Below, in pieces: positions 1-57,909 of a DNA stretch of 64,000 nucleotides. A program made the position numbers and the translations under genes. Position 1 is the first letter of the stretch; each line of letters starts with the position of its first letter. Below the pieces are notes generated by a model. It searched no databases. It had not been told where the DNA came from and worked only from the letters and a program-made list of their open reading frames with translations. Source of the DNA: Brevinematia bacterium (lineage in GTDB: Bacteria; Spirochaetota; Brevinematia; DTOW01); the NCBI GenBank assembly GCA_049968435.1, contig JBMFQU010000001.1, positions 609 through 64,608 on the forward strand, in the 5' to 3' direction.

Positions 1-9
1 AAAATATTT

Positions 10-1242
10 TTGGTAGTAGTTTTTGCATTAAATTTTATAGGTTTTGTTGTTCTGTTTGTGTCGTTTTCTTTTGTTGCCCTTTTCTTTGAAATTGCTTTAT
101 TATCTGTTTCGTCTGTATCTTTAGCTCTTATTATGTACTTAAGTAGGCGGGTAGGAGTTATTTTTCACTTTATTAAAAAGATCTTACCAAACTATCATCC
201 TTTACTTTCAATAGGTCAAATTGATAAATTTGTTATTAAAAATTTTCTTATTTTTAGAAAAAGGTTTTTGGAACTTTACCGAGAGAATGCTATTCTTTTT
301 GAGGTTTTTAATAATTTGGATAATGTTGGAATCATACTTTTAAACTCTAATAACCAAATTATTTTTTATAATACTTATATTGAAAAGTTTTTTGAACTTA
401 GTCAGAATTGTTTTGGTAAAAGTTTATCTTCTATTTTTACTCTTGCTATTGTTAAGATTTCTTTAGATGATTCTGAACAAGAAGTAGAAGTTGTAAAGGA
501 AGGTAAGATTAAAACTTTGAGGATTTTTATAAGAAATATAAAAGAAAATAAGCTGATTTATTTTTTCGATATAACTGAGCTTAAAGAACTTCATAAGACT
601 ACTCAGCTAACGATGAGTATAATTTCACATGAACTAAATACCCCCATCACTAGTATAAGCCTTGCTTTGGAAAACATACTTTTTAGTGGAAAAGTTTCTC
701 AGGAGATTATAGATGTAACTCTTTCCAATATTTATCGTCTTACTAATACTATTTCTAACATAATAAGTTTATCAAATATATACTCTAGCAAAGTAATTTT
801 ATCAAAGTCTAGGTTTGATATTTTAGAATTGATAGATTCAATAACGAAATCTCTCATTCCTACCTATAAAAATAAGCATATAAAACTCAATTTAAATGTT
901 GAAGGTGATACTAACTTTGAAGAAGATAGAGAAAAATTACAGTTAATTTTAACTAATATTATTGATAACGCTATGAAGTTTTGTAATGAAGGTGGTGAGG
1001 TAGACATTTCTGTTATAAATCATAATGAGGGATATAAGATTACTGTTACTAACACTGGTTCAACTATAAATGATGAAGAGAAAGAAAAAATATTTGATAT
1101 GTTTTATCGTGGAAAAGGCTCTAGCGCAAAAGGTAGTGGTTTAGGTTTGTATATTGTGAAGTTATTATCGAATATTCTCTCTTTGAAGGTTTCTGTTTTT
1201 AGCGAAAACAATAGAACATCTTTTGTTTTAGAAAAGCTCTAG
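10..1242 (+). CDS. Sensor histidine kinase with N-terminal TM segments, a PAS-like region, HisKA and HATPase domains. The frame is open to the window start, so it may be 5'-partial.
   Basis: H-box 'HELNTPITSISLALE', N-box 'LILTNIIDNAMKF' and G-box 'GSGLGLYIVK'. No stop codon lies upstream in this frame before position 1. Confidence 0.8.
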   Translation: MVVVFALNFIGFVVLFVSFSFVALFFEIALLSVSSVSLALIMYLSRRVGVIFHFIKKILPNYHPLLSIGQIDKFVIKNFLIFRKRFLELYRENAILFEVFNNLDNVGIILLNSNNQIIFYNTYIEKFFELSQNCFGKSLSSIFTLAIVKISLDDSEQEVEVVKEGKIKTLRIFIRNIKENKLIYFFDITELKELHKTTQLTMSIISHELNTPITSISLALENILFSGKVSQEIIDVTLSNIYRLTNTISNIISLSNIYSSKVILSKSRFDILELIDSITKSLIPTYKNKHIKLNLNVEGDTNFEEDREKLQLILTNIIDNAMKFCNEGGEVDISVINHNEGYKITVTNTGSTINDEEKEKIFDMFYRGKGSSAKGSGLGLYIVKLLSNILSLKVSVFSENNRTSFVLEKL

Positions 1243-1302
1243 TTTTACTATTACCTCTGAGTTGAATTTAATAGCTTTATTTGAAAATAATTCCAGGAAA
1301 TT

Positions 1303-2235
1303 ATGGAGAAAGAAATTATTCTATGGGTAGTTTTTTGGACTGTATTTCTTGTCGTTCTGATACTTGATTTATTTGTTTTCTTTAGAAAACATTCAGAAAT
1401 TAATGTAGGAAAAGCTTTTTTTCTTTCATTTACTTGGATGATTATTGCTCTTTTTTATTCGGTACTTATATTCCTTTATGAAGGTACAACTTCAGGTGTT
1501 GAATATATAACTGCTTATTTTGTTGAGTGGTCTTTGAGTGTTGATAATTTATTTGTATTTCTAGTCATTTTTACATTTTTTAGTGTGCCTAAGGAGTATC
1601 AACATCAAGTTCTGTTTTGGGGTGTTTTAGGAGCAATAGTTTTTAGAGGTATTTTCATATTCTTAGGTGTTTCTCTTGTAAATCAATTTTCTTGGTTGTT
1701 TGTTGTTTTTGGGGTTTTCTTAGTATATACTGCTTTTGTACTTTTATTTAAAAAAGATGATGAGCAAGTTAAAATAGAGAATAGGTTTGCTTATAAGTTA
1801 GCAAGAAAGTTATTTAATATAACACCTGATTACATAAATGGGTATTTTTTTAAAAAAATTGATGGAAAAATTTGGGCTACTCCTCTTTTTCTGTGCTTGA
1901 TAATGATAGAGTCTACTGATATCTTATTTGCTATAGATTCTATTCCTGCTGTTCTAGGTATTTCTACACATCCTTTAGTTGTATTCACTTCAAACATTTT
2001 TGCAGTAATGGGGCTTAGATCTATGTATTTTGCTCTTGCCGGCATAATGGGCATTTTTAAATTTTTGAAGTATGGACTTTCTATAGTACTTGCTTATATA
2101 GGTTTGAAAATGATAGTTAAAGAACTTTTACACATAAAGATAGATTCTTTCATTTCTCTTTTAATTGTTTTGTCAATACTTGGAATTTCTGTACTTTTAT
2201 CACTTATTATAAAGGATAAAAGAGCTGGAGTATGA
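1303..2235 (+). CDS. TerC-family integral membrane protein
   Basis: Multi-TM protein with the TerC-like 'SLSVDNLFVFLVIF' motif. Its 4-nt overlap with aroE suggests an operon. Confidence 0.7.
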   Translation: MEKEIILWVVFWTVFLVVLILDLFVFFRKHSEINVGKAFFLSFTWMIIALFYSVLIFLYEGTTSGVEYITAYFVEWSLSVDNLFVFLVIFTFFSVPKEYQHQVLFWGVLGAIVFRGIFIFLGVSLVNQFSWLFVVFGVFLVYTAFVLLFKKDDEQVKIENRFAYKLARKLFNITPDYINGYFFKKIDGKIWATPLFLCLIMIESTDILFAIDSIPAVLGISTHPLVVFTSNIFAVMGLRSMYFALAGIMGIFKFLKYGLSIVLAYIGLKMIVKELLHIKIDSFISLLIVLSILGISVLLSLIIKDKRAGV

Positions 2236-3080
2236 TAACTTCATCTTCTAATATATTTTGCGTTATAGGTAATCCTATAAAACATTCAAAGTCTCCTGTT
2301 ATTCATAATTTCATATTCAATATATTGGGTATTGATGCTGTTTATGTTGCTTTTGAAGTTAAGGATTTAGAGACTTTTTTTAAATTCATGAGAGATGTGG
2401 GTATTTCTGGGGTTAGTATAACTATACCACATAAAGTAGAGTCATTAAAACATGTAGATTGGGTTGATGAAGTTGCTAAAAAAATAGGAGCGATAAATAC
2501 TATTAAGAATGAACAAGGTTATCTAAAGGGTTTTAATACTGATGTTGAGGGTATATTAAAAGCTTTTGAGGTTAGAGGAATTACATCTCTTAAAGGCAAG
2601 TTTTCTTTGGTATTGGGTACAGGCGGAGTTGCTAGAAGCACAATACACTCTTTGATACTTTTAGGTGTTGAGAAAATTGTAATTGCTGGTAGAACCCTAG
2701 ATAAGTTAAGTTATTTGGTTGAAGAAGTTAGATCTTTTTTCAAAAATGTTGATGGAGTAAGCTTTGATAAAGTAGGAGAGTTAATAAAGGTGGGGGTAGA
2801 TGTTGTAGCGAATTGTACACCTTTGGGTATGTTTCCTGAAGTTCAAGTTGCACCGATTGATCTAAGTTTAATAAATAGTAATCATATTGTTTTTGATACT
2901 ATTTATACGCCTATTGAAACTAGGTTAATTAAAGTTGCAAAAGAAGTAGGGGCTAAAGTTATATATGGTATTGACATGTTTGTTTTTCAGGCTTTGGCTC
3001 AGCAAAAAATATGGCTAAATAGAGAAGATGTTTTTGTTTTAAAAGATGAAGTTATTGATCTTCTAAATGGCTTTCGCTAA
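2232..3080 (+). CDS. aroE: Shikimate 5-dehydrogenase
   Basis: N-terminal 'GNPIKHSKSPVIHN' shikimate-binding signature and a 'GTGGVARS' Rossmann motif. Confidence 0.85.
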   Translation: MITSSSNIFCVIGNPIKHSKSPVIHNFIFNILGIDAVYVAFEVKDLETFFKFMRDVGISGVSITIPHKVESLKHVDWVDEVAKKIGAINTIKNEQGYLKGFNTDVEGILKAFEVRGITSLKGKFSLVLGTGGVARSTIHSLILLGVEKIVIAGRTLDKLSYLVEEVRSFFKNVDGVSFDKVGELIKVGVDVVANCTPLGMFPEVQVAPIDLSLINSNHIVFDTIYTPIETRLIKVAKEVGAKVIYGIDMFVFQALAQQKIWLNREDVFVLKDEVIDLLNGFR

Positions 3081-3618
3081 ATACTTCTGCTGTGAAAACG
3101 AATATTTCAGTATCTTCTTTCTTGTAATCATTTGGAGATAGTCCTGCTTTTATGCAAGTATATTGAAGAAATGTTATTTTATCCCAGTTATGTTCAATAG
3201 CAACCTGCGGTAATAATAATCCTTGGAATGGTCCTCTTCTTACTATTAGTCCGTGTTTGCCGACTTCTATTTCTGAGATTGATTCTATTTTTTTAGGTTC
3301 TGAGAGTATAGAAATTTCAATTTCAATCTGATTTATCTCTTCTTTTTCTAATGGATCGAATCTTGGATCTTTCGTAGCAGAAGAAATAGCAGCATCAACT
3401 ACAAGTTGGGGGAATGGCTTTATTGGGTATATATATCCTATACATCCTCTTAATTCTTTGTTTTTAGTTAGTGTTACAAATACTCCTCCGTGTATACCTA
3501 TTTTCTCAACTATTTTCTTTTGTTTTTCAAGTTCTTGTTTTAGACTAGAATTAAATATTGATTCAATGGAAAGTCTAGCTAATTTTAATATCGCCTTCTT
3601 CTGATCCTTACTTATCAT
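3052..3618 (-). CDS. AMMECR1-domain protein
   Basis: 'LRGCIGYIYP' AMMECR1 signature; 188 aa. Confidence 0.7.
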   Translation of the reverse strand: MISKDQKKAILKLARLSIESIFNSSLKQELEKQKKIVEKIGIHGGVFVTLTKNKELRGCIGYIYPIKPFPQLVVDAAISSATKDPRFDPLEKEEINQIEIEISILSEPKKIESISEIEVGKHGLIVRRGPFQGLLLPQVAIEHNWDKITFLQYTCIKAGLSPNDYKKEDTEIFVFTAEVFSESHLEDQ

Positions 3619-3865
3619 AAGTAAATTTTACTAAAGTATTAAAGAGGTTTCAATGTTTTTAGTCTAAGATTAGAATATAATACTCCAGTTAGTATTTTTA
3701 CTTCTACCTCTAGTAATGAAAGTTAAATATTTTATACCTTTTAGTTAGAGATGTTTTAATTATAACTTCTAAAATAATTTAAGAGATGTGATTAATAATT
3801 ATTCTAATAAAAGGTACCTATAAGAGGCGAAGCTTTCTGATTTATTTATAGTAACAGAGAAGTTT

Positions 3866-3962
3866 CTTAAATTTTTACTTCTATTAGGAGTGAATTTTTA
3901 TATTCTCTTACTTCTAGAAGGTAATTAATAGGAAGATAGAATTTTCCTAACTAATTAGAGGG
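3866..3962 (+). repeat. About 95-bp intergenic repeat module 'cttaa..ttctattaggag..aatttttatattctcttactt.tag.agg..agaattttcctaac.aattagagg'. A second copy lies at 10279-10372.
   Basis: Direct by-eye alignment of 3866-3962 with 10279-10372. Confidence 0.6.
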
Positions 3963-4000
3963 AGATCTTGATAAGAGGGTAAAACCCCTACAAAGGCGGG
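3958..4000 (+). repeat. Repeat module 'agggagatcttgataagagggt' followed by a short hairpin. A second copy lies at 12944-12990.
   Basis: The 22-mer is identical in both copies. The downstream GGGT..ACCC hairpin stems differ between the two copies. Confidence 0.6.
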
Positions 4001-4086
4001 TGAGCGGGAAGCAAAAAGTAAGTTTCTCAAACTTCTTAAAAAGCAGTTCTTAACTCTATTAAAGGGGAGAAGGAGAGGTACTCTGT

Positions 4087-4103
4087 AGGAGGCGAAGCCT
4101 CCT
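4087..4103 (+). repeat. REP-like palindromic hairpin 'aggaggcgaagcctcct', containing a GCGAAGC mini-hairpin core.
   Basis: Perfect inverted repeat seen in the sequence. Variants lie at 3828-3840, 10218-10234, 10383-10401, 12856-12877, 48511-48540 (inverted) and 57528-57545 (inverted). Confidence 0.6.
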
Positions 4104-4203
4104 CTGGAATCAAAGGGCGGGAGGGTGGGGCACGCACTAAAAGAAGTTTCTAATTTATCTTCATTATTGAAAACTATAAGATTGGGTGATTAGAATTTAG
4201 CTT

Positions 4204-9891: not shown

Positions 9892-10278
9892 AGTAGTATA
9901 AATGTAAAAGTATTTGCTTGTTCTTTTCAAATAGATTGAATTTATTTTGTAAAAATCTTTCTAAATTTATTAAGAATTGAGGCTTTATATTTTCTTACTT
10001 CTATGAAATACTAATAGTATGTGGAATTTTTACAAATCATGGTGTGAATACTAAAATAAATTTCTAAAAATTTCTAAACTTTGTTAGAAATAGAGAACTT
10101 TTTCTTACCAATTTAACAATTTACAGAAAGAGGTTAAGGTGAAGCTTTCTTAAATTACTTACTTAATGGAAGCAGTGAAGGCGAAGCTTACTTTGGAATG
10201 ATTAAGGAGGTATTACTAGGAAGCGAAGCCTTCTGTTGCACTAAAGGGCTTATGGGGAACAAAAAGAAGCTTATAAAA

Positions 10279-10372
10279 TTTCTTAACTTCTATTAGGAGG
10301 TAAATTTTTTATATTCTCTTACTTTTAGTAGGACCTAATATGAATTTAGAATTTTCCTAACAAATTAGAGGT
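10279..10372 (+). repeat. Second copy of the about 95-bp intergenic repeat module (see 3866-3962).
   Basis: By-eye alignment; about 80% identity. Confidence 0.6.
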
Positions 10373-10382
10373 AGGTATTACT

Positions 10383-10401
10383 AGGAGGACGAAGTCTTCC
10401 T
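10383..10401 (+). repeat. REP-like hairpin 'aggaggacgaagtcttcct'. A sister copy 'aggaagcgaagccttct' lies at 10218-10234.
   Basis: Imperfect inverted repeat with a GAA loop. The same stem recurs as a terminator at 46779-46800. Confidence 0.55.
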
Positions 10402-10558
10402 GTAGAACTCAGGGGAGGTTTCTAAAATTCTTAACTTCTATTAGAAGAGTTGAATCTTTGGTTTTAGTAGAAAGAAGAAGTTGAAGATAAGAATATTATT
10501 TACTTGGATAATTTGAAAAATAGTATTATTATAATTTACATTAAATTAGGGGGAGATC

Positions 10559-11008
10559 ATGAGAAGAAATATTGTTTTTTTGTTGTTTGTATTCACTTTA
10601 ATATTTCTATTTTCTTGCTCAAAGAAAGAAGATAAGGTTGGAAGAGAACTTGAAGATAAAATGTCTAAACTTTTAGGTCAGATCGTTGTTGAATTGAAAG
10701 AACCTAAGGTTATAGATAATCTTGATCCTAGAAAATTTGTTGAGTTGAGCGCTATTATGCTTGTTAGCAATTATTATTGGACTAAAGAACTTATTAGTTC
10801 AAATTCAAATGTGTCTCCTGAGGAAATTGATAGTTATAAAACTTTAAAAAAGCAGCAGCTTTTGTCTTCTTTTGGTTTAACTCTTGATGATTATGAGAAT
10901 TATTCAATCAAAAATTACAAAGAACTACAAGAGTTTTCTAAAGAGAATCCTGAAGTTATGGACTTGTATAATGAAATTGCCAGATCATTACCTACTTTTG
11001 AGGATTGA
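10559..11008 (+). CDS. Hypothetical lipoprotein
   Basis: Signal peptide with a lipobox 'LFSC'. No recognisable domain. Confidence 0.4.
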   Translation: MRRNIVFLLFVFTLIFLFSCSKKEDKVGRELEDKMSKLLGQIVVELKEPKVIDNLDPRKFVELSAIMLVSNYYWTKELISSNSNVSPEEIDSYKTLKKQQLLSSFGLTLDDYENYSIKNYKELQEFSKENPEVMDLYNEIARSLPTFED

Positions 11009-11126
11009 TTTTAATAAATTAGGTTAATTAAGTATTAATAGAAGTTTTAGAGGTTTTTTGAAAAATTTGAAATAGTTTTGATAGTAATATTATAATAATC
11101 TTTAAGTATTGAAGGTGGAGGATAGT

Positions 11127-11960
11127 ATGTCTGATGTTGTTCAGGAAAGTCAGATGGAGATACAACCTTTCTCTTCTGAGAAGGTTAATATTAATATTCT
11201 TTTAGAAGCTGGGGCTCACTTTGGGCATCAAAAGAGTAAATGGAATCCTAAAATGAAGGAGTATATTTTTGCTTCTAAAGGTAATGTTCATATAATTAAT
11301 CTTCAGAAGACTTTAGAAAAATTAAAGGAAGCTTATGAGTTTGCTAAAGAAATGGCTAAACAAGGTGCTAGGTTTTTGTTTGTTGGTACTAGAAAGCAAG
11401 CTCAGGATATCATAAAGCAAGAAGCTCTTGCTTGTGGTCAGTTCTATATAAATACTAAATGGATTCCAGGTACTTTGACTAATTTCCCTTCTATAAGAAG
11501 ATCTATTCAAAATTTGATGAGGATAGAAAAGATGGAAGCTGACGGTTCTATAAATCAACTTCCGAAAAGTGAAATAAATAAGGTAATGAAGTTAAAGAAG
11601 AAACTTTTGGAGAAGTTAGAGGGTATTAAAGAGATGAAGACGCTTCCAGATGTTCTTTACATTGTAGATATCACTAAAGAGGAAATTGCTGTTAAGGAAG
11701 CTAGGAAGATGGGGATTCCTATTATTGCTATTGTTGATACTAATGCTGATCCTACATTAGTTGATTATCCAATTCCGGCGAATGACGATGCAGTTAGATC
11801 AATACAAATCATTACTGAGGTTATAAAGAGTGCGATATTAGAGGGCGAAAATTATGCAGTTAAGAAAGAAATAGAAGAGATATCTGAAGAGGAAAAACCA
11901 GATTTAAGTGTTCCAGAAGATATTTCTGATAAACTAGAGAGTATGGAAGATAGAGATTAA
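11127..11960 (+). CDS. rpsB: 30S ribosomal protein S2
   Basis: 'LLEAGAHFGHQKSKWNPKM' S2 signature. A GGAGG lies 7 nt upstream of the ATG at 11127. Confidence 0.85.
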   Translation: MSDVVQESQMEIQPFSSEKVNINILLEAGAHFGHQKSKWNPKMKEYIFASKGNVHIINLQKTLEKLKEAYEFAKEMAKQGARFLFVGTRKQAQDIIKQEALACGQFYINTKWIPGTLTNFPSIRRSIQNLMRIEKMEADGSINQLPKSEINKVMKLKKKLLEKLEGIKEMKTLPDVLYIVDITKEEIAVKEARKMGIPIIAIVDTNADPTLVDYPIPANDDAVRSIQIITEVIKSAILEGENYAVKKEIEEISEEEKPDLSVPEDISDKLESMEDRD

Positions 11961-11962
11961 AT

Positions 11963-12685
11963 ATGGTTATTTCTTATGAGTATAAGAATGTAAAGATTGG
12001 ATTGGATATTCCTAACTTTAATGATCCAAAATCGGTTGATGAGTTTGATTTAGTAAACTTTTCTATCTCATCCGTTCTTCATCCTAATCTTGCAAATAGT
12101 GATTTTAATGTTTTTTTACCTAATCAAGTTCATGGTGATGATATTATAGTTTTAAAGCAAAATAAGATTCATTACAAATCTCAAATTTTTGACTTTGATT
12201 ATTCTTTATCTAGGACTTTGGAAGCAGATGCTATTGTTAGTTTTGATAAGGAAGTTATAATTGGAGTTAGGACTGCCGACTGTGCACCCATTCTTTTTAG
12301 TGATGGTATTTTGACCGGTGTTATTCATGCTGGATGGAGGGGGCTTAAGGCTGGGATAATTCAGAAGACTATTAACTTTATAAAGGATGAAGTTGGTTTT
12401 GATTCAAGTTCTTTTGTGTTTTTTATCTTACCATGTATTCATGTTTGCTGCTATGAGGTGGGAAAAGAATTTTTAGAGTGGGGAGAGAAATTTTGCCATA
12501 TTAAGGGAGATAAGATTTTTTTTGATATACCTAAGTTCGTATTTTCTACTTTATCTAATTTAGGTGTGGTTGAAGATAATATTTTCTATTCGCCTCTTTG
12601 CACAAGTTGTTATTCTAATGTTTTACCTTCATATAGGGCTAGTAAAACCGAGGAAAGAATGGTTTCATTTATTTCTTTGACTTAA
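11963..12685 (+). CDS. pgeF: YfiH/PgeF-family (DUF152) purine-nucleoside phosphorylase / laccase-domain protein
   Basis: 'RTADCAPIL' and 'HAGWRG' conserved Cys/His motifs. Confidence 0.7.
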   Translation: MVISYEYKNVKIGLDIPNFNDPKSVDEFDLVNFSISSVLHPNLANSDFNVFLPNQVHGDDIIVLKQNKIHYKSQIFDFDYSLSRTLEADAIVSFDKEVIIGVRTADCAPILFSDGILTGVIHAGWRGLKAGIIQKTINFIKDEVGFDSSSFVFFILPCIHVCCYEVGKEFLEWGEKFCHIKGDKIFFDIPKFVFSTLSNLGVVEDNIFYSPLCTSCYSNVLPSYRASKTEERMVSFISLT

Positions 12686-12855
12686 TTTGTTTTACTCTTT
12701 ATTGGAAGAATTAAAAGCGTAGACTTGACTAATCCAAACTGTAACTTTCAGTTCTATCACTAAGAAAGGTAAATTTTCTTATGGAGGTAATGGAAGAAGC
12801 AAAGGCAAATTTTGTTTTTGTGGCTTTCCAATCTTTCCAAATAGTAGGTACTACT

Positions 12856-12877
12856 AGGAGGATGCGAAGCCTTCGCT
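12856..12877 (+). repeat. REP-like hairpin 'aggaggatgcgaagccttcgc', preceded by 'gtaggtactactagg'.
   Basis: Shares 'ggta.gta.tactaggagg..cgaag.cttc' with 10205-10235, 10371-10401 and 48511-48540. Confidence 0.55.
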
Positions 12878-13068
12878 AAGTAGGAGTTAGGAATTTGTAA
12901 TTAGGAATTTGGGAATAGGTGATTGTGGGATAAGTAAAGGGAGATCTTGATAAGAGGGTTGAACCCTCTTAACGCACTAAAGGGTGGGGAAGATAATAAA
13001 AGTATTTTTAAAACACTATTTAAAATTTGTTGTTAGTATTACATAACTAATTTATAATACTGCTAACG

Positions 13069-14319
13069 ATGGCAGAAGAAATATCATTCAGAGTAGTAAA
13101 GTATAAACCCAATACTTACATAGTAATAGAAGGAGATAGGATACCTGAGGAATTTTACATAATTCAGTCAGGGAAAGTACAAGTTTTTGAAACAATAGAT
13201 CCCATAATAAAGGGTACAAAGGAAGGGACAACTCTACAAAAAGGAGACTTTTTTGGAGTAGTATCTTGTATGAGTAGAAGAAACAATATGGAAACAGTTA
13301 TAGCATTAGAAGAAACTTCATTATTAGCAGTAAAGAGATCTCAGTTTGGGGATCTAATCCAAAAGAGCGCACCAATAGCTGTAAAGATACTTAGGTTTTT
13401 TAGTAAAAAACTCAGAGAATACGATTCTACTTTAACGAAACTCACTTTTAAGTCAAAATCAGAGGAAGATCCATACCAGCTATTTAACATAGCAGAGTTC
13501 TATTACTCAAAAAAGATGTTTGAACAAGCAGCATATGCTTATAGAAAGTACATAGAGTATTGTCCAGATGGTGGATATATTCCAAGTGCAAAAATGAAGT
13601 TAGCATCAATTGATCCAATGATCGCATTAGCAGAACCAGAAGTGATAGAGTCTAAATCAATAGAAAGGTACCATGATAACCAAGTTATATTCTGCGAACA
13701 CGAATACGGTGAAAAAGCTTATGTAATACTAAAAGGTAATGTCAGAATAACAAAATTTGTAAACGGAAATGAAGTATTATTAGCTGTTTTGAAAGAAGGA
13801 GATGTATTTGGAGAGATGGCAATCCTTGAAAATAGACCAAGAAGTGCAACAGCAACGGCAGTCGGAGAAACAGAATTACTTTACATCAAAAAGGAAAACT
13901 TTGAAATGATGGTACACACCAATCCAGATATAGCAACAAAAATTATAGAGCTACTAAGTGATAGGATTTGGACAATATATCGTCAGTTAGCAAATATAGT
14001 ATTGAAAGATCCAACAGCAAGAATATATGACGCAATAATGATACAGATAGAAAAAAATAGAATACCCATAAAACCTAAAGAATCATTTACGCTTAATTTC
14101 ACTGTAGAAGACTTAATAAAATTTTTAGGTTATCCAATGGATGAAGGCAAAAAATACTTAAAACAAGTACTTGATACCGATAAAAATATAACAATATCAC
14201 AAAACAACAAAATAGTAATAAATGATTTAGAAAAACTAGTAAAGGATGTTACATTCTATAAGAAAAAACTACTCTTAGATCTAAAAATTCAAATGAGTAG
14301 ATCACAGACGAACAGGTAA
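13069..14319 (+). CDS. Crp-like regulator with two cyclic-nucleotide-binding domains, a TPR-like middle segment and a probable C-terminal wHTH.
   Basis: Two cNMP-binding beta-roll motifs ('GDFFGVVSCM..RR', 'GDVFGEMAILENRPRSATA') and a C-terminal helix-turn-helix-like 'FTVEDLIKFLGY..KKYLKQ'. Confidence 0.6.
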   Translation: MAEEISFRVVKYKPNTYIVIEGDRIPEEFYIIQSGKVQVFETIDPIIKGTKEGTTLQKGDFFGVVSCMSRRNNMETVIALEETSLLAVKRSQFGDLIQKSAPIAVKILRFFSKKLREYDSTLTKLTFKSKSEEDPYQLFNIAEFYYSKKMFEQAAYAYRKYIEYCPDGGYIPSAKMKLASIDPMIALAEPEVIESKSIERYHDNQVIFCEHEYGEKAYVILKGNVRITKFVNGNEVLLAVLKEGDVFGEMAILENRPRSATATAVGETELLYIKKENFEMMVHTNPDIATKIIELLSDRIWTIYRQLANIVLKDPTARIYDAIMIQIEKNRIPIKPKESFTLNFTVEDLIKFLGYPMDEGKKYLKQVLDTDKNITISQNNKIVINDLEKLVKDVTFYKKKLLLDLKIQMSRSQTNR

Positions 14320-14321
14320 AT

Positions 14322-16262
14322 CTACTTTAAACTTTTTTTCCTAACTTCATAAACATTCGTACCTGCCTTTGATTTTACAGTAACTGTAAAGTTCTTTTTT
14401 ATGTAATCTTCTATTATTTTTCTTTTACTAATATTCCACATGTTATCACCCTGCCTAATTACCACATAACTACCATCAAGGAGCTTTAATTTATTACCTG
14501 GATAAACCCAATCTGGATCTTCCCACTTTTTAGGTTTTCTGTAAGTAAGGGGCTTATAACCATTTATAACTGCTACTTTATTAACATACACCCATATATC
14601 GTAATCAGTAATAGTTATACCCAATGTCTTCTGAACTTCTGTAAGCTCAGGTTCGTATATGTTATCAAGGTTTGAAATTATTTGACTAACTCTTCTCTCT
14701 TCTTGAGTAAGAGAAATCCCAAAAAAATTATAAATACTCTCTCTAAATAATAACCCTACACCTCCAACTAAAAGCAATAAAACTAAAACTCCTAACACCC
14801 ACCAATATCTAAATCTAAAAAACCCATCAGTATAACTTCTTCTTTCAGAAGAAATTTTCTTTCTTTTTTCTTCTGTCACAACCTTATGTTTTTCCTCGAC
14901 TGAGGAAACCTCAGAAACAAAATCACCTTCACTAACCTTTCTTTTAGCAATCTCTTGAATTTCTTCTCCTTTTTCAGTTCCTTCTAATCTTTCACTCTTA
15001 ACAAGTAAATTAATTTTATCAGTATAAGCTAGAGAGTAAACAAATTCATAAGCATCTATAAGCTCCTCAAGTCTTTTTCTATCGTTAGCTACCCGCCTAT
15101 TATCTTTCTCGAATTCTTTCTCTATATCAGATACAAAAATCCTTTTATCAGTTATCTTTCTCATATTTTCTCTTACATTCAAGAACTCTTTGTCAAAATC
15201 ACCTTCAACGGGATCCATAAAAATAATATCAGAGTAAAAACCAGTAAATTTTTGCTTATTGAAATTTTCTAAAACAACATACTCCTTATCATAAAGCTCT
15301 AATTTATTTTTAACTTCTCCATCTCCCAAAATAAGATTTTTATCTCTACCGTCCCTATCTTTAAGTGGAATATAATACTTTCCTTCCTCTAAAACAATAT
15401 TTACATTATTTATGATATTTATCCTATCGCTCACATCAACAAACTTGATACCAACATTAAACTGTTTGAAATCTTCAAAGACAGATCTATTGGTAAAAAC
15501 TTTTAAACTACTCCTATCAAAAATTAATCTAATCCCATCTATAAGGGAAATAACATCATTACCTATAACTTCTCTTACTTTTGCAAGAGGTACAAAATTT
15601 TTCAAAAAAGATCTTTCATCAAATTGATCAGTTATGACAAATATTTCTCCATTCTTAGTCTTTATAACATAACTACCTGAAATTCTTAATATAGAGTTAT
15701 TGGGCAAAAGATCATAAAACTTTAAAGAGAACAAATATACTATCTTAGAAGTCGTCAAATCATTGTTTATAGTACTAAACATATCAAATATCTTTTTACC
15801 ACTAAATGTAATGGCAAAATTAGCATTATCGTATAAAAGTACATAGCTCTTATACTTCTCACTTATTTCAGATAAAACTTTGTTAAGTTCCTTCTCTTCA
15901 CCTGATTTATCAATCACTTTAACGTTAACCTTATGATGAAACTCCTTCTTTAGAAATTTAAGAATTACATTATAAACACTACTAGGCACAATAAAATTAG
16001 TATCAAATTCATCAGTTTCAATTTGTTTTATTTCATCCTTCAATGAAGAAAGATAACCAGCACTTACAACCACATTGGATATATGTTTTTTTATTTTTTC
16101 GATATAAGTCGAATAACCCACCCTTATAAATGGTCTCTCATCAAGAGGAGAAAAACCTGTAAAAACAACATAACAATCTCTATCTACTTTAAAAACTCTT
16201 TTATTAGGTTCGTCATTATACATCCTTATGAGAGAAATAAACTTTCTAACTTTTTCTTCCAT
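14322..16262 (-). CDS. Hypothetical 646-aa protein with a large cytoplasmic N-terminal domain, a single TM helix and a C-terminal extracytoplasmic LysM-like domain.
   Basis: TM helix 'WWVLGVLVLLLLVGGVGLLF'. The C-terminal 'DPDWVYPGNKLKL' resembles the end of a LysM fold. The N-terminal domain is unrecognised. Confidence 0.4.
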   Translation of the reverse strand: MEEKVRKFISLIRMYNDEPNKRVFKVDRDCYVVFTGFSPLDERPFIRVGYSTYIEKIKKHISNVVVSAGYLSSLKDEIKQIETDEFDTNFIVPSSVYNVILKFLKKEFHHKVNVKVIDKSGEEKELNKVLSEISEKYKSYVLLYDNANFAITFSGKKIFDMFSTINNDLTTSKIVYLFSLKFYDLLPNNSILRISGSYVIKTKNGEIFVITDQFDERSFLKNFVPLAKVREVIGNDVISLIDGIRLIFDRSSLKVFTNRSVFEDFKQFNVGIKFVDVSDRINIINNVNIVLEEGKYYIPLKDRDGRDKNLILGDGEVKNKLELYDKEYVVLENFNKQKFTGFYSDIIFMDPVEGDFDKEFLNVRENMRKITDKRIFVSDIEKEFEKDNRRVANDRKRLEELIDAYEFVYSLAYTDKINLLVKSERLEGTEKGEEIQEIAKRKVSEGDFVSEVSSVEEKHKVVTEEKRKKISSERRSYTDGFFRFRYWWVLGVLVLLLLVGGVGLLFRESIYNFFGISLTQEERRVSQIISNLDNIYEPELTEVQKTLGITITDYDIWVYVNKVAVINGYKPLTYRKPKKWEDPDWVYPGNKLKLLDGSYVVIRQGDNMWNISKRKIIEDYIKKNFTVTVKSKAGTNVYEVRKKSLK

Positions 16263-36416: not shown

Positions 36417-36593
36417 TACTATATATTTTTCGGAAAAATAGTTTAATTAAAGAACTTTAACCAATTTAAAAGTTATAAACTACCTTTAGGTCAGTGAAAG
36501 ATAAACACTCACTACTTTAATCAGAAAGTAAAACTTTTATCTATTATAATAGGAGCTAGGAATTATTTAAGAAACCTCCTTTTGTTACCCACC

Positions 36594-36695
36594 CTTAAGT
36601 TCTACAATTAGAGATGTTAAAAAGTTTAGGAAAATAATAGGAGGAAGGAATTTTTAAGGAATTCCTTTTGCTTTTACCATGCTCTTAAGCGTCTA
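36594..36695 (+). repeat. About 100-bp repeat module, copy 1. It is about 95% identical to 57426-57528 and contains a 12-nt palindrome AAGGAATTCCTT.
   Basis: Direct alignment of the two copies. Confidence 0.7.
36645..36675 (+). terminator. Hairpin 'aaggaatt-tttaagg-aattcctt' followed by a T-rich tract, a candidate intrinsic terminator inside the repeat module.
   Basis: 8-bp AU-rich stem and 7-nt loop, then 'ttgctttt'. An identical structure lies at 57477-57507. Confidence 0.35.
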
Positions 36696-36883
36696 TAGGA
36701 AGCTACACACTCTTTTAATTAACTCTTATTAGAATCTTTCCTCAATATCCAATTGAAGGTTTAATCCTCTTTTAGAAATTACTTTTAGTAATTCTACTCT
36801 AACTGTTTGGAATAAGCAGGATGGAATTTTCAAACATATACTGAATTTTGATAAATCACAAATGAAATGTTTATATTTTTCTT

Positions 36884-41432: not shown

Positions 41433-42386
41433 ATGAAAAAAGAGATAGTAATATCAGTGCTAATATATTTTTCAGTAATAATAACAGTATTACTCATAAT
41501 ACCATTTTTATCCGAAAATATTTCAAAAGTATTCTCAGAAAATAAAACACCATACGAAATTTATCACGAACTTGGAAAAGACAACAATGAAGAAACAAAT
41601 ATATCCAATACACTATCAGATTATAGCCCTACTGAATTTATGGAAAAAGAATATACCATACCTACCGAAGAACAAATTCAAGACATTATAGTACCAAAGG
41701 GGAAACCTATGATAACCTTAGTAATAGATGATTACGGTTATTCTCTTGAAGAACCAGTAATAACCTCTATAACATCTAGTATACCAATAACAGTAGCCAT
41801 AATCCCATTTCTAAAATATTCAAAAACAATAAATAATTTAGCCAAAATGTACAACAAAGAGGTAATAATTCATCTACCCATGGAAGCCTACAAATTAAAA
41901 ATAAAAGATACCCCTTACATAAAAAAAGGACAAGACTCTACAGAAATCATAAGAATCTTAGAAAAAGCAACTCAGGAATTAGAAGGAGTAGGAATGAACA
42001 ATCACATGGGATCAGAAGCAACAGAAGACCCAGAGGTAATGGAAACAATAATAAGATTTCTTAAAAGAAAGAATCTATTTTTCTTAGATTCACTAACTAC
42101 TCCAAACTCAGTAGGATATAAAAAAGCAAAAGAAATGGGATTAGTCCCTTTAAAAAGAGATGTATTTCTTGATAATTATCCATCACAATATTACATAGAG
42201 GATCAATTGAGGATGGTAGAAAAAGTGGCTACCAAAAAGGGTTACTGTATAGCAATTGGACATATTAGAGAAAACACTATAAAAACTTTAATGAAATGGT
42301 ACCAAGACAATAAATCTAATTATAGATTTACAACTCTTAAGAATCTTTATGAGGAACTAACCAAATTGGAAATAAGCAAAAAATAA
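41433..42386 (+). CDS. Divergent polysaccharide deacetylase (YibQ-like) family protein
   Basis: 'ITLVIDDYGYS' and 'HLPME' motifs typical of the divergent PDA family. N-terminal TM anchor. Confidence 0.6.
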   Translation: MKKEIVISVLIYFSVIITVLLIIPFLSENISKVFSENKTPYEIYHELGKDNNEETNISNTLSDYSPTEFMEKEYTIPTEEQIQDIIVPKGKPMITLVIDDYGYSLEEPVITSITSSIPITVAIIPFLKYSKTINNLAKMYNKEVIIHLPMEAYKLKIKDTPYIKKGQDSTEIIRILEKATQELEGVGMNNHMGSEATEDPEVMETIIRFLKRKNLFFLDSLTTPNSVGYKKAKEMGLVPLKRDVFLDNYPSQYYIEDQLRMVEKVATKKGYCIAIGHIRENTIKTLMKWYQDNKSNYRFTTLKNLYEELTKLEISKK

Positions 42387-42400
42387 GGGGAAATCCCCTT
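42385..42400. terminator. Bidirectional terminator-like hairpin 'aaggggaaatcccctt'. It is duplicated at 42662-42677.
   Basis: 6-bp GC-containing stem flanked by A/T runs, lying between convergent genes. Confidence 0.45.
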
Positions 42401-42413
42401 AAATATCTTAATC

Positions 42414-42623
42414 TTATTGTTTCTTTTCTTTCAAGGTACAAATGCCAAAAATGCTATAAAGCAAACAGAAACCAGTTATAGCAGTCAAAGCTAAGATACC
42501 ACCTACAACAATAAGCACTATTTGTAAAACACCAGAAGTAAAGAATACTCCTACAACAATTAATATTAAAGCTAATACAGCTCTTATTATCCTATCAAGT
42601 AAACTTTCATTAACCTTTAACAT
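42414..42623 (-). CDS. DUF2892 (YgaP C-terminal-like) small membrane protein, copy 1. ATG start with a GGAGG RBS.
   Basis: Two TM helices and 'TGFCLLYSIFGICT' (GxCxxY-like) motif; 69 aa. Confidence 0.6.
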   Translation of the reverse strand: MLKVNESLLDRIIRAVLALILIVVGVFFTSGVLQIVLIVVGGILALTAITGFCLLYSIFGICTLKEKKQ

Positions 42624-42690
42624 ATATAACCTCCTATATATTCTCTTATTAAGCAAAAAATAAGGGGAAATCCCCTTAAATATCTTAATC

Positions 42691-42900
42691 TTATTGTTTC
42701 TTTTCTTTCAAGGTACAAATGCCAAAAATGCTATAAAGCAAACAGAAACCAGTTATAGCAGTCAAAGCTAAGATACCACCTACAACAATAAGCACTATTT
42801 GTAAAACACCAGAAGTAAAGAATACTCCTACAACAATTAATATTAAAGCTAATACAGCTCTTATTATCCTATCAAGTAAACTTTCATTAACCTTTAACAT
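42691..42900 (-). CDS. DUF2892 small membrane protein, copy 2 (identical)
   Basis: Identical to copy 1. Confidence 0.6.
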   Translation of the reverse strand: MLKVNESLLDRIIRAVLALILIVVGVFFTSGVLQIVLIVVGGILALTAITGFCLLYSIFGICTLKEKKQ

Positions 42901-42922
42901 ATATAACCTCCTATATATTCTC

Positions 42923-43579
42923 TTATTTTGCAAATGATAAAACTTGATTTATAAAAGAATGCTCATCTTGAACTCCAATAGTAATAGAATCTTCTGAATC
43001 GTTTATAATTTGGGTAGGAACACTTTCAATACCCCACTTCATAGCTAAATCAGGAACTTCGTTTGCTTCAATAACTTCAGAAGTTACTTTACCACTTGAA
43101 GCAACTGCAATTCTATTTGCAAGATAAGCAGAAGCTGGGCAATAAGGGCAAGAAGGCGTCACAAATACTTTTATATTAACAGGTTTACTAATAGAACTTA
43201 ATTCTTTAGCCATATTTCCTTCTATGTCATGTGAATCATTAGAAACCATAATCAATGTTTCAACAATTTGACTTGCTTCATATCCTAAAGGTGATCCTCT
43301 GAAAATGATCTTATACCCTTTATCTTCACCTATTGTAACTGTAGGATTAGTCTCAATAGGGATACCTACATCACTAACTTGGACATTTTCTCTGAAATTG
43401 ACTTTAATTTTGCTATTAATCTCACCCAATTCCTTAAAAAATTGTTTAGTAAAATTTACATATTCCTCATTTTCATTTTCACCTGTCCTAAAGTAAACAT
43501 TAACAACAACTTCATTCGAAAGTTCTTGAAACCTCTCTTCAAGGAATTTCCTTGATTCATTATCGATGATTTGCTCCAT
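42923..43579 (-). CDS. Glutaredoxin-like protein disulfide oxidoreductase (two thioredoxin-fold units, one CPYC active site)
   Basis: 'SCPYCPAS' active site in the C-terminal unit. The 218-aa two-domain architecture matches thermophile PDOs. Confidence 0.6.
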   Translation of the reverse strand: MEQIIDNESRKFLEERFQELSNEVVVNVYFRTGENENEEYVNFTKQFFKELGEINSKIKVNFRENVQVSDVGIPIETNPTVTIGEDKGYKIIFRGSPLGYEASQIVETLIMVSNDSHDIEGNMAKELSSISKPVNIKVFVTPSCPYCPASAYLANRIAVASSGKVTSEVIEANEVPDLAMKWGIESVPTQIINDSEDSITIGVQDEHSFINQVLSFAK

Positions 43580-46555: not shown

Positions 46556-46769
46556 ATATTAATATGAAGTATATTGAAGATTATAGATAAACTTCTATTA
46601 TTTATTCAATCTTAAACTACTGTTCTAAGACAAACTTGAATACTAACCTTGAATAATAATAAAAACCCTAGCATCAATCACCTGGTCATATAAAAGATGA
46701 ATTAATTATCTATTAGGGATTCGCTACTTGATAGATTTAAGAATTTTAATAAAATTAAAAAACGTAACA

Positions 46770-46800
46770 ATTTTAAAAAGGAAGACTCGGCCGTCCTCCT
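46770..46800 (-). terminator. Intrinsic terminator downstream of the OMP gene: hairpin 'aggaggac-ggccga-gtcttcct' followed by TTTTT on the minus strand.
   Basis: 8-bp stem plus U-tract read on the minus strand. The stem is the same as in the REP-like hairpin at 10383-10401. Confidence 0.5.
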
Positions 46801-46815
46801 TTATTATAATTTAGA

Positions 46816-47867: not shown

Positions 47868-48518
47868 TTAGGTCACATTGTAAGTACTTTCCCCATGCTG
47901 AGATTCATCAAGTCCTGTTATTTCATCATCATGTTTTACTCTAAGCCCTACAAATATCTTAATGATAAGAAGTATTAGTAGAGTAACTATAGCATCGTAA
48001 ATTATTACAACACTAACAGCAAAAGGTTGAATAATTAACTGAATAGGATTTTCATAAATTAGCCCTCTACCTAATTCGTTTACTGATGGATCAGCAAAAA
48101 CATCCGTTAGTATAGCACCAAGAATACCGGCAATACCGTGTATACCAAAAACATCAAGAGCATCATCATAACCTAACCTTCTTTTTACTATTGCAACCAT
48201 AAAGTACGGGATAATACCTGCAATTAAACCTATTATTAAAGCACCTACTACATTGACAAAACCTGCAGCAGGTGTTATAGCAACAAGTCCAGCCACCGCA
48301 CCAGAAGCAAGGCCTAGGACAGTAGGCTTTTTAGTGTAAACCCATTCAGTAAACATCCAAGATAAAGCTGCAACAGCCGATGCAGTATTTGTATTTAGAA
48401 AAGCGGCAGATGCAAGCGAGTCTGAAGCTACAACAGAACCAGCATTAAAGCCAAACCATCCAAACCACAATAACCCCGTACCTATGACAACCATAGGAAG
48501 GTTGCTGGGAATAAGCAT
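47868..48518 (-). pseudogene. Ammonium transporter (Amt) C-terminal half only (TM6-11). The N-terminal about 190 aa are absent.
   Basis: It begins at the mid-protein 'GTGLLWFGWFGFNAGS' signature. There is no upstream ORF in about 300 bp. Its start is fused to a REP-like motif at 48511-48540. Confidence 0.55.
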
Positions 48519-48814
48519 CGCCTCCTATAGATTACTACCTTTTATTTCCATGATTTAATCAATATCACTATAAGAAATTTACCAAAAAACCAACAATACT
48601 TTTGCTTATTTTTTAGATAAAAATCTTTAACTTATGCTTAAAATTAAGACAATTAAAATCGATTTAGCTTTTGGTTATTGCAAATTCTAAAATTAAAAGC
48701 TAGAATGTTATTAAATATTTTTCAGAATTACCACTCTAACTTTAGAAAGTTAATTAATTTCCTTGTAGGAAAGACTTATAGAATAATAGTGATATCTTAT
48801 TTTAATTAGGAGCT

Positions 48815-51919: not shown

Positions 51920-52038
51920 GCCTGGCGAGTACCTACTTTCCCACCTCGTTGCCAAGGCAGTATCATCGGCGGTACGGGGCTTAACTTCCGGGTTCGGAAT
52001 GGAAACCGGGTGTTTCCCCCGCCCTATGCTCACCAGGC
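51920..52038 (-). rRNA. rrf: 5S rRNA
   Basis: The reverse complement gives the canonical 5S ends and about 119 nt. The segment is GC-rich relative to the flanks. Confidence 0.85.
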
Positions 52039-52089
52039 AAAAAAACATCCATCTGACGATGGATGATGTTTATTAATTTATATTGATGG

Positions 52090-55075
<2,986 letters not shown>

Positions 55076-55203: not shown

Positions 55204-55220
55204 ACATTAAATAATTAATG

Positions 55221-56858: not shown

Positions 56859-57425
56859 TTATAGAGAGTTTATAACTCAAAAATAATTTCTGCACACAAG
56901 ACCCGCCGGCAGATACATATCTTCCTATGTTATAGAGCAACAAAACACCAACAAATTACGTTGGTAACTACTATTATAAAAAAACAATTACATAGTTGCA
57001 AATTAATTTCACTTCTTCAAGAAGAAGTGAAAACCTTCAATATAAAATAGAGCAAAAACCCTTAACTTTCAAAAGGCGAATATAATTATATACAAAATTT
57101 TTCCAATTGTCAAATTCAATAAAAATATCTAAATTCCCAAATCTAAAATTTTTAATCTAAATAATAATTTTCACATACCTTCACTAGAAGGTAGAAATTT
57201 ATTATCTTAATTGAACTAGAAATTTCTTAAGAAAATTCTTCTTGTTTCCCACCCCTCTTTTGATACCTCCCTTTAGTCATCTAAATTAGCCTACATTTCT
57301 TTAAGAAAGTTATTTGCTATTCCTGATAGAAGTTAAGAATTTTAGAAACTTCTTTTTGTTTCTCACCCAACCCGCCCTTAAGCATTTGCAGGAGAGCTAA
57401 CGCCCTCCTACCTAGTAATACCTCC

Positions 57426-57528
57426 CCTAAGTTCTACAATTAGAGATGTTAAAAAGTTTAGGGAAATAATAGGAGGAAGGAATTTTTAAGGAATTCCTTT
57501 TGCTTTTCGCCTGCTCTTAAGCGTCTAC
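57426..57528 (+). repeat. About 100-bp repeat module, copy 2, about 95% identical to 36594-36695. It contains the same terminator-like hairpin at 57477-57507.
   Basis: Direct alignment. Confidence 0.7.
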
Positions 57529-57545
57529 CGGAGGCTTCGCCTCCT
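57528..57545 (-). repeat. REP-like hairpin 'ccggaggcttcgcctcct', the inverted orientation of the 4087-4103 motif.
   Basis: The reverse complement matches 'aggaggcgaagcctcc'. The neighbouring 57361-57425 and 57640-57665 are inverted copies of modules seen at 10205-10260 and 12944-12965. Confidence 0.55.
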
Positions 57546-57909
57546 ATTAGTACCTCCTATTAGAGAGTTAAAAAGTAAAATTTTTAGTTCTCCTAATAGA
57601 ATTTAGGATTTTTAAGAAACCTCTCTTTGTTTACCACCCACCCTATAGTGCCAAGATCTCCCTTTATCTACTGGACATAGAAGATTCTTTATTCCCAAAT
57701 TCCTAATTCCAAACCACTAATTCCAATAAAGTTAATATCTTCCTATTAGCACATTCTTTCAGCAACAACTTCAAAGTTTTAAATCCTATTAGGAAATCTA
57801 CCTATTACCAAATTCTTAATTCCAAGCCTCAAATTGCGATAGATTTAATATTAATAAACTTCTTGAAAAAGAAAATATGTTAGTTAGAAAATAAAAAATG
57901 GAGGCACAA

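Follow-up and report, generated by a model that had tools for sequence, protein, structure and literature searches.

A family of intergenic repeats combining a hairpin with a G-run block in Brevinematia

The window analyzed here, a 64,000-nucleotide stretch of contig JBMFQU010000001.1 of a Brevinematia bacterium (assembly GCA_049968435.1), carries a repeat unit of about 95 nt in which a short hairpin is followed by a block of G-runs, the G-tract. Thirteen units were found, all of them intergenic, in five of the six longest intergenic regions of the window. We interpret them, with a probability of roughly 0.55, as a lineage-specific, non-coding structured intergenic repeat of the kind represented by repetitive extragenic palindromic (REP) sequences and bacterial interspersed mosaic elements (BIMEs), Neisseria intergenic mosaic elements (NIMEs) and BOX elements, turned over by recombination. 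This general kind of repeat is already known and the family itself is new; it gives no sign of an unprecedented type of genetic system. With a G+C content of about 29%, the window includes an rRNA operon on the minus strand (51920-56862, with the 16S rRNA at 55359-56862). Its species is missing among the GTDB representatives searched, in which the nearest argB is 77% identical.

Anatomy and placement of the repeat unit

A first-pass annotation of this DNA had described a mosaic built from a kit of four modules and spread over six intergenic regions. Comparison of these regions by blastn returned significant segments linking 3619-4203 (A), 9931-10558 (B), 12686-13068 (C), 36417-36883 (D) and 56863-57897 (F); for example, 3812-3978 matched 10208-10388 at 74% identity (E 5e-24), and 36589-36733 matched 57421-57564 at 88% (E 5e-40). 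Three module patterns were observed four, six and two times, against 0.02, 0.72 and 0.00 expected from dinucleotide-shuffled sequence. The motif-model check proposed at first pass was run with an nhmmer profile built from 11 aligned copies; scanned over the window, it recovered the 13 units with E-values of 5e-4 to 7e-22, three in region A and two each in B and C, all on the plus strand, and two in D and four in F, all on the minus strand (Table 1). Five of the six regions were thereby upheld. The sixth, 48519-48560, was rejected as a repeat copy, since it reached only E=1.9 and corresponds to the ribosome-binding region of the gene at 47868-48518.

In the alignment of the 11 copies, the unit consists, in this order, of a head (consensus GGAGGTAYTAnTAGGAGG), a hairpin formed by the TAGGAGG arm of the head, a short loop and CCTCCTA (core usually GCGAAGC), a spacer with TAAA at its end, a G-tract (complete form GGGYGGGnGGGTGGGG) and an AT-rich tail with the consensus aacaaaaagaagtttctaaaattcttaacttctattaggag. 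The sequences shared among the five regions are real. Module (ii), when aligned with module (i), proves to be a variant head; module (iii) joins the tail of one unit to the head of the next; and module (iv) is the reverse complement of the G-tract and tail; since all of them map onto parts of the unit, the alignment points to one unit, rather than a kit, as the source of all four modules. A 22-mer of the variant head of unit A2 recurs exactly at 3959 and 12938.

Within each of the five regions the units follow one another head to tail in the same orientation, with lengths of 58-107 nt and a mean column identity of 48%. Self-comparison of the window (inverted and direct repeats, blastn) revealed no terminal inverted repeats bounding the arrays, and no constant short repeat separates the units, whose boundaries are their own head and tail. 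As already concluded at first pass, this is not a CRISPR array, as the repeat is not constant, the spacing is not regular and there are no unique spacers. The label "REP/MITE-like" holds in its first half: the units are mosaic, palindromic, REP-like and confined to intergenic DNA, and they lack the terminal inverted repeats and clear target duplications of a MITE.

When 14 hairpins were folded as DNA, about 8 clearly outdid their shuffles and the others proved to be decayed. The stems of these 8 measure 6-9 bp, with z down to -6.4, and vary by paired changes and whole-pair insertions: AGGAGGC/GCCTCCT, AGGAGGAC/GTCTTCCT, AGGAGGGC/GCCCTCCT and AGAGGGT/ACCCTCT, all of which fold, as well as AGGAGGGC/GCTCTCCT. 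The compensatory differences between copies reported earlier are thus confirmed. Most stems are preceded by TAG, which itself lies within the palindrome and is extended to GTAG in A3 and in many copies of the sister family described below, and to CTAG or ATAG elsewhere. GCGAAGC occurs seven times in the window, six times within units, always on the strand of the G-tract, and once in the 23S rRNA; one unit carries the core GCGTTAGC, and sister-family units also carry GCGATAGC and GCGGAGC. The motif had correctly been named as a known mini-hairpin: DNA hairpins of the class GCGNAGC/GCGNNAGC melt at ~70-77 °C with only two base pairs, and all four of these cores belong to this class, not to the RNA GNRA loops (PMC13037366). 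Four G-runs of at least three G with short loops are found in the window in A3 alone, the other units having two or three runs. Hairpin and quadruplex formation are predictions from the sequence.

As RNA, whole units do not fold consistently better than shuffles (z +1.3 to -3.1); the head hairpin alone recurs in most of them, and a short tail stem in a few. In the Rfam search only rRNA and tRNA passed the gathering score, the repeat regions reaching at best 12-25 bits against gathering scores of 41.5-100. Because the loops are not of the stable RNA classes and neither a consistent RNA fold nor an Rfam match was obtained, the structure of the unit looks like a DNA rather than an RNA feature.

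The preference for 5' regions proposed at first pass was borne out. Units occupy four of nine divergent regions in the window, one of 41 co-directional regions and none of the 10 convergent ones (4/9 vs 1/51 others, Fisher p=0.0012). The best sigma-70-like sites, which are consensus matches and hence predictions rather than mapped starts, separate the units from the genes in all regions and stand 6-16 nt from the ATG or GTG start codon, at four genes 6-10 nt. Between the ends of the units and the -35 boxes of these sites, which follow downstream, are 15-90 nt; the tail of A3 extends into the -35 of the argB site, and the rRNA promoter-like site lies 93 nt 3' of the nearest unit. Since the best promoter-like sites separate the units from the start codons, and the rRNA site is 3' of all four F units, the units are probably located upstream of promoters and the leader function suggested by the first-pass annotation is unlikely. 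At four of these genes (4167-4203, 3625-3653, 13030-13068 and 36848-36883), the best -10 box lies 6-10 nt from the start and no Shine-Dalgarno sequence is seen, which suggests that leaderless or near-leaderless mRNAs may be common in this organism.

The orientations themselves were described correctly, the units lying on the plus strand in A, B and C and on the minus strand in D (36.5 kb) and F (57 kb), but the claim that orientation tracks transcription gains no support from them. Four of the five regions are divergent, so that either orientation faces a gene transcribed away from the unit and the match is uninformative; region C is the only informative one. Among the sister-family arrays in co-directional regions, 15 run with the genes, 6 run against them and 4 are mixed (p=0.08); five further arrays lie between convergent genes.

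Separately, the cumulative GC skew of the window peaks near 14 kb (about 14000-14400), where the genes turn from mostly plus to mostly minus strand and the unit orientation switches together with skew and gene orientation. This peak could be a replication terminus or an inversion boundary.

Table 1. Repeat units, related elements and promoter-like sites in the window
Feature	Position	Strand	Basis
Promoter-like site, AMMECR1-like gene	3653-3625		consensus scan
Unit A1: degenerate head, GCGAAGC hairpin, no G-tract, tail end ttctattaggag	3811..3890	+	nhmmer E=1.1e-10; hairpin no better than shuffles
Module (iii): linker from A1 tail to A2 head	3866..3962	+	second copy 10279-10372; third allele in L009; three-way alignment; blastn
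Unit A2: variant head agggagatcttgataagagggt, weak hairpin, degenerate G-tract, duplicated tail	3958..4061	+	nhmmer E=5.8e-12
Unit A3: 7-bp hairpin AGGAGGC-GAA-GCCTCCT, four-run G-tract GGGCGGGAGGGTGGGG	4071..4168	+	nhmmer E=2.3e-16; DNA fold -6.8 kcal/mol, z -3.4
argB promoter-like site TTGAAA-18-TAGAAT, 7 nt 5' of ATG (4204)	4167..4196	+	consensus scan, 10/12
Two decayed hairpin copies aaggtgaagcttt, gaaggcgaagctta, 5' of B1	10131..10200	+	read from sequence; GCGAAGC at 10181; blastn 10143-10328 vs 57622-57434
Unit B1: full; head, GCGAAGC core, two-run G-tract, canonical tail	10205..10299	+	nhmmer E=6.8e-22
Unit B2: hairpin AGGAGGAC-GAA-GTCTTCCT, G-tract deleted, canonical tail	10368..10446	+	nhmmer E=2.7e-14
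Promoter-like site, 149-aa gene	around 10505-10542		consensus scan
Unit C1: only head and GCGAAG-C-CTTCGC palindrome	12842..12880	+	nhmmer E=5e-4; fold -4.2 kcal/mol
Extra module aggaatttgtaattaggaatttgggaata	12883..12930	+	also 57690-57738, 57803-57851 and end of L009 (1-93); inverted repeat 86%; blastn 12824-12949 vs 57776-57652
Unit C2: variant head, 9-bp hairpin TAAGAGGGT-TGA-ACCCTCTTA, G-tract GGGTGGGG	12937..13014	+	nhmmer E=1.5e-6; DNA fold -7.8 kcal/mol, z -6.4
Promoter-like site, cyclic-nucleotide (cNMP) regulator	13030-13058		consensus scan
Unit D1: G-tract and tail only	36546..36603	-	nhmmer E=8.6e-6
Unit D2: 88% copy of F2, AAGGAATT/AATTCCTT hairpin in tail	36635..36734	-	nhmmer E=4.3e-7; direct repeat
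Promoter-like site, mnmE	36848-36877		consensus scan
Possible decayed unit after porin gene: B2-identical stem, TTTT, tail-like stretch	46715..46812	-	alignment; weak
rRNA operon promoter-like site TTGACA-17-TATAAT, 3' of all F units	57085..57113	-	consensus 12/12
Unit F4: head remnant, G-tract GGGGTGGG, palindromic tail	57206..57269	-	nhmmer E=1.8e-5
Unit F3: hairpin AGGAGGGC-GTTA-GCTCTCCT (core GCGTTAGC), G-tract GGGCGGGTTGGG, canonical tail	57321..57427	-	nhmmer E=1.3e-16; DNA fold -6.8 kcal/mol, z -3.1
Unit F2: hairpin GGAGGC-GAA-GCCTCC, degenerate G-tract, tail hairpin	57467..57559	-	nhmmer E=1.2e-17; fold z -2.6
Unit F1: variant head without hairpin, G-tract GGGTGGGTGG, tail	57591..57655	-	nhmmer E=9.1e-13

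Strain turnover and a sister family

To follow the units between strains, contigs L007-L012 from three other metagenome-assembled genomes (MAGs) of the same species were used (L007 and L010 from GCA_049969235.1; L008 and L009 from GCA_049970515.1). Their coding DNA is 99-99.8% identical to the window, and the units differ. In L007 and L008, the 68 nt next to the argB start, promoter-like site included, are conserved, and the position of A3 is taken by another unit with the hairpin AGGAGG-aaaagg-TCTCCT and no G-tract; the two contigs diverge from each other again one unit further upstream. Upstream of the 149-aa gene, L010 carries a complete unit (AGGAGGGC-GAA-GCCCTCCT, G-tract GGGTGGGTGGGG); the same place is occupied in the window by B2, in which the G-tract is deleted and 38 nt are inserted. 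Region D, unit D2 included, is 99.5% conserved in L011.

Gene order changes at the same places. In L009 (4396-4927), window 1-3966 is fused to 10265-12950 through a third allele of module (iii) of its own. This strain thus lacks the 6.3-kb argB-FAH block here and has the AMMECR1-like gene next to the 149-aa gene, and argB of that MAG is on the separate short contig L008. In L007, argB adjoins a Clp ATPase gene that is not in the window. Short MAG contigs end inside units (L008, L010, L012 and both ends of L009). The arrays are breakpoints for deletions and rearrangements between strains.

Two further strain differences were recorded. The last ~50 nt of PgeF and the DNA beyond differ between L010 2250-2345 (GCA_049969235.1) and window 12634-12685 (243 vs 240 aa), this breakpoint falling inside the gene end and not in a unit. 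At 42373-42926, a perfect 277-bp tandem duplication with two 100% identical copies, present as a single copy in L011, fills the convergent gap after a polysaccharide deacetylase gene.

Outside the species, the exact modules of the window were not found in the genome, metagenome and viral collections scanned. Units were likewise absent from L001-L004, L006 (argB 81-83%), L013, L014 and L016, of which 10-21 kb each were sampled. In the closest relative, L002 11810-12150 is a tmRNA-like sequence ending in ggggttcaattcccctc and not a repeat array, as judged by eye only and unconfirmed. More distant Brevinematia (L005 and L015, argB 76%) carry intergenic units of the same architecture, in which a hairpin, (G)TAGAGAGG-loop-CCTCTCTA(C), is followed after 6-10 A-rich nt by GGGCGGGTGGGTGGG and then by arrays of palindromes. 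These 14-bp palindromes, GTGCTwAnnwAGCAC, recur with a 16-17-bp period and form a tail different from that of the window family; they are absent from the window species. Sharing hairpin and G-tract, the sister family is, by sequence, clearly homologous to the window units, as is plain from aGGGAGGCGATAGCCTCCCTtagaatcttaaGGGTGGGAGGGTGGGGctactaaaagtaa (L097, L102) beside tAGGAGGCGAAGCCTCCTctggaatcaaaGGGCGGGAGGGTGGGGcacgcactaaaagaag (unit A3).

The sister family is abundant in related metagenome contigs: a double-palindrome scan matched at least 120 metagenome stretches, of which 80 loci (600 kb) were analyzed. The hairpin-plus-G-tract detector was applied to AT-rich relatives only, because it is unspecific in high-GC DNA (82 matches in 1.2 Mb of unrelated loci). 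The analysis revealed 102 G-tracts of at least three runs against one in shuffled loci, and 72 of the 102 have at least four runs, i.e., the canonical quadruplex motif. A hairpin stands within 45 nt upstream of 85 of the 102 and downstream of 27, compared with six in shuffled flanks; palindromes follow 48 G-tracts and precede four. Stems come in 28 different sequences, and loops are mostly triloops (GAA, GGA, GTA, AAA) or GATA, with the G-rich strand favored about 2:1 over the complements. Arrays are enriched in divergent regions, being present in 20 of 71 of them against 25 of the 180 co-directional and 5 of the 61 convergent ones (p=0.003); both orientations occur in 9 of 50 regions, and orientation shows a weak bias with GC skew (56 vs 30). 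An array of ~320 nt in L015 is missing from L005, with flanks ~97% identical; the site is flanked by a 7-bp TTCAACA repeat only, and deletion by slippage fits equally. The simplest account would be a family that is old in the class, with fast-evolving sequence and constant architecture.

The largest sister arrays (>1 kb) lie directly upstream of a strong predicted TTGACA-17-TATATT promoter (L097 1-1400, L102 13100-13400, L155, L163 and L165), which precedes a recurrent gene for a coiled-coil protein with weak Pfam matches (KxDL, TRIM_CC). The GTGCTwAnnwAGCAC arrays (L093-L172, L005, L015) resemble operators for a dimeric DNA-binding protein.

Proposed origin and possible role of the units

We propose that the hairpin, with its purine and pyrimidine arms and a core that is usually GCGAAGC, and the G-run block, with two to four runs and a quadruplex motif at four, would leave the double helix when the DNA is single-stranded or underwound. 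Units would then persist and change mainly by recombination between copies, i.e., gene conversion and unequal exchange, with slippage at the hairpin and G-runs adding to the change. Insertions would be tolerated chiefly where the DNA upstream of promoters is not transcribed, most of all in divergent regions; a side effect is the deletion and rearrangement breakpoints observed at arrays between strains. No transposase or integrase is encoded in the 64-kb window or among the 10 array-flanked genes examined, which are ordinary housekeeping genes without a common function.

Several points weigh against this interpretation. In distant relatives the arrays adjoin orthologues of FAH, PgeF and the M23 peptidase, i.e., of the neighbors of regions B, C and D in the window, which could reflect either long persistence or function. 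The position beside core promoters and the 14-bp palindrome arrays of the sister family look like protein-binding sites. A 10/12 promoter-like site at 10029-10057 lies upstream of the B units, and no terminator is predicted after PgeF in region C, so some units may be transcribed. The tblastn search for a Y1 transposase, without a match in ~0.9 Mb, used a weak query, an approximate IS608 TnpA. The readable DNA amounts to 64 kb of this genome and a few short sister-strain contigs. MAG contigs can also be chimeric at repeats, and some of the rearrangements may be assembly or population artefacts; still, the L009 junction bears its own allele, and because the strain alleles are distinct, real sequence variants exist.

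The closeness of the units to promoters, the arrays of palindromes and the persistence of arrays at given positions make a role in regulation or architecture a serious rival reading, if an unlikely one in our estimate. Under such a role the units would be cis-acting upstream elements, either protein-binding platforms or supercoil sinks (cruciform, quadruplex) that insulate or tune divergent promoters. Their place 15-90 nt upstream of -35 sites, their enrichment between divergent genes and the recurrence of arrays beside orthologous genes would agree with this, as would the sister palindromes, which keep to one side of the G-tract (downstream of 48, upstream of 4) and border strong predicted TTGACA-17-TATATT promoters; at Neisseria pilE, a G-quadruplex (G4) located upstream of a promoter has a function (PMC10094033, PMC3547852). 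Yet unit number and content vary among strains whose genes are 99-99.8% identical, many copies are decayed, arrays also occur between convergent genes, the neighboring genes share no function, the tail is not conserved between the two families and no candidate binding protein was identified.

We consider it rather improbable that the units are working parts of the chromosome, i.e., dispersed modules of non-B DNA upstream of promoters that start recombination or priming on the exposed strand or organize promoter regions. Each would then couple a mini-hairpin and a quadruplex with one-nucleotide loops to a lineage-specific protein-binding array, its architecture kept while its sequence drifts, and by analogy the family may be a genome-wide counterpart of the single pilE G4 site.

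That the family is REP or REPIN proper also appears doubtful. Here, a hairpin with a (G/C)TAG foot would be cut and copied as single-stranded DNA by a Y1 (HUH) REP-associated tyrosine transposase (RAYT) encoded elsewhere. The units are indeed short imperfect palindromes, extragenic and multi-copy (13 in 64 kb), and many have TAG or GTAG feet (gTAGGAGGC in A3; cTAGGAGG in B1, B2 and L010; GTAGAGAGG...CCTCTCTAC in the sister family), GTAG-tagged palindromes being the commonest REP super-family (PMC3733652). The mini-hairpin core, too, points to single-stranded DNA, and the strand bias of sister G-tracts with GC skew would fit. However, the units stand in direct tandem and not as inverted doublets, they prefer divergent regions, while most REPs are found between genes that are unidirectional or convergent (PMC3733652), and a unit of ~95 nt with G-tract and tail is far more than a REP. 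The first-pass annotation had named membership in a known RAYT-linked REP family as the outcome that would make the repeat unoriginal; no RAYT gene is present in the window or among the array-flanked genes, and no Y1 transposase was recovered there or in the weak-query tblastn search of ~0.9 Mb.

The least supported of the readings, and a very unlikely one, takes the units as transcribed 5' leaders or small RNAs co-oriented with the gene, whose hairpins would serve RNA processing, stability or translation control: in all five regions a unit does point towards a gene transcribed away from it, the AGGAGG/CCTCCT arms resemble Shine-Dalgarno and anti-Shine-Dalgarno sequences, the 10029-10057 site could read through the B units and PgeF transcription through region C, one stem recurs in a terminator-like hairpin, and the sister family has 15 co-oriented against 6 anti-oriented tandem regions, but the match is automatic in four of the five regions, the best promoter-like sites (the rRNA site included) are 3' of the units, there is no consistent RNA fold beyond one hairpin and no Rfam match, the loops fit DNA rather than RNA stable-loop classes (PMC13037366), and anti-oriented, mixed and convergent cases exist.

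Other identities were rejected: a phage or plasmid origin (no match of the three patterns in viral contigs), a known RNA family (no Rfam match at gathering score), a structured non-coding RNA (no consistent advantage of whole-unit folds over shuffles), a tRNA-derived element (only four ordinary tRNAs in the window) and a small open reading frame (ORF) in the variant head, whose frames stop after 4-29 codons.

Three loci of the window carry unit-like sequence outside the 13 units. After the porin gene, the stem that the first-pass annotation had called a real terminator (46779-46800) is the 8-bp stem AGGAGGAC/GTCTTCCT of B2, followed by a tail-like stretch; the whole element, 46715..46812, was missed both by the nhmmer profile and by the terminator scan, and is a possible decayed unit, likely acting as the porin-gene terminator. 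The start of the 149-aa gene, attagggggagatcATGagaagaaat (10541-10570), matches the variant head attagagggagatcTTGataagaggg (3955-3980) by eye at 20 of 26 positions, and a unit may have given rise to its ribosome-binding site and start codon, or these to the unit. The 216-aa ORF at 47868-48518 (minus strand) matches only positions 186-399 of the 399-position Ammonium_transp model and is, judging by this match, an Amt transporter's C-terminal half; where the N-terminal half would be expected there are 296 non-coding nt (48519-48814), with a head-like motif, ggtagtaatctataggagg, exactly at the truncation point.

Relation to known repeats and significance

Pneumococcal BOX elements (boxA-boxB-boxC) are modular, hairpin-forming, lineage-specific intergenic repeats with variable middle modules and no transposase of their own. 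The window units are likewise modular, hairpin-forming, intergenic and lineage-specific; BOX, however, is bounded by its A and C modules and forms discrete insertions, whereas the arrays here are open-ended tandems without terminal modules. NIMEs comprise 50-150-bp RS units bounded by dRS3, are tied to recombination and rearrangement, and are interleaved with other palindromic repeats. Like them, the Brevinematia arrays are long intergenic mosaics of repeat units in variable combinations (mosaic regions are mentioned in PMC3733652); unlike them, they lack a dRS3-like 20-bp boundary, are not linked to a phage integrase target and are dissimilar in sequence, and it is their hairpin and G-tract that are conserved.

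With the REP and BIME repeats of Enterobacteria and Pseudomonas, the family shares short imperfect palindromes, many of them with a TAG or GTAG at the foot, a strictly extragenic location, multiple copies, mosaics with other motifs and variability between strains. The differences lie in the direct tandem order in place of alternating orientation, in the coupling of the hairpin to a G-run block and an AT-rich tail in ~95 nt, and in the divergent, promoter-upstream location, in contrast to the mostly unidirectional or convergent setting of REPs (PMC3733652), with no RAYT found here. Without inverted doublets, with no RAYT seen in the DNA searched and with an atypical location, the family does not qualify as REP/REPIN; nor, lacking terminal repeats and clear duplications, a dRS3-like boundary and a regular array, does it qualify as MITE, NIME or CRISPR.

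Two functional DNA structures offer further comparisons. A G3N1-2G3N1-2G3N1G3-4 motif upstream of a promoter is tied to recombination at the N. gonorrhoeae pilE G4, and G-runs occur at Borrelia vls and Treponema tprK (PMC3547852, PMC10094033, PMC4412290). The G-tracts of F3 (GGGCGGGTTGGG) and A3 (GGGCGGGAGGGTGGGG) are similar in form, but those sites are single, locus-specific, devoted to antigenic variation and equipped with a dedicated small-RNA promoter, whereas the units are dispersed over many housekeeping loci and most window copies have two or three G-runs. The mini-hairpins of single-strand initiation (ssi) sites (phage G4, St-1, RSF1010 ssiA, N4 promoters) have identical cores, GCGAAGC and GCGTTAGC, with GCGATAGC and GCGGAGC in the sister family (PMC13037366); those, however, are functional sites that occur singly, on single strands of phages or plasmids.

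Together, if our description of the family as a recombining intergenic repeat holds, Brevinematia carry an undescribed, abundant repeat family that shapes gene order between strains and couples two of the most stable single-stranded DNA structures known, and this in genomes of only 29-36% G+C. It would explain the fragmentation of the MAGs of this group at intergenic regions and provide a ready marker for strain typing. The family would also offer a natural system for studying the role of a hairpin plus quadruplex in bacterial recombination or promoter insulation.

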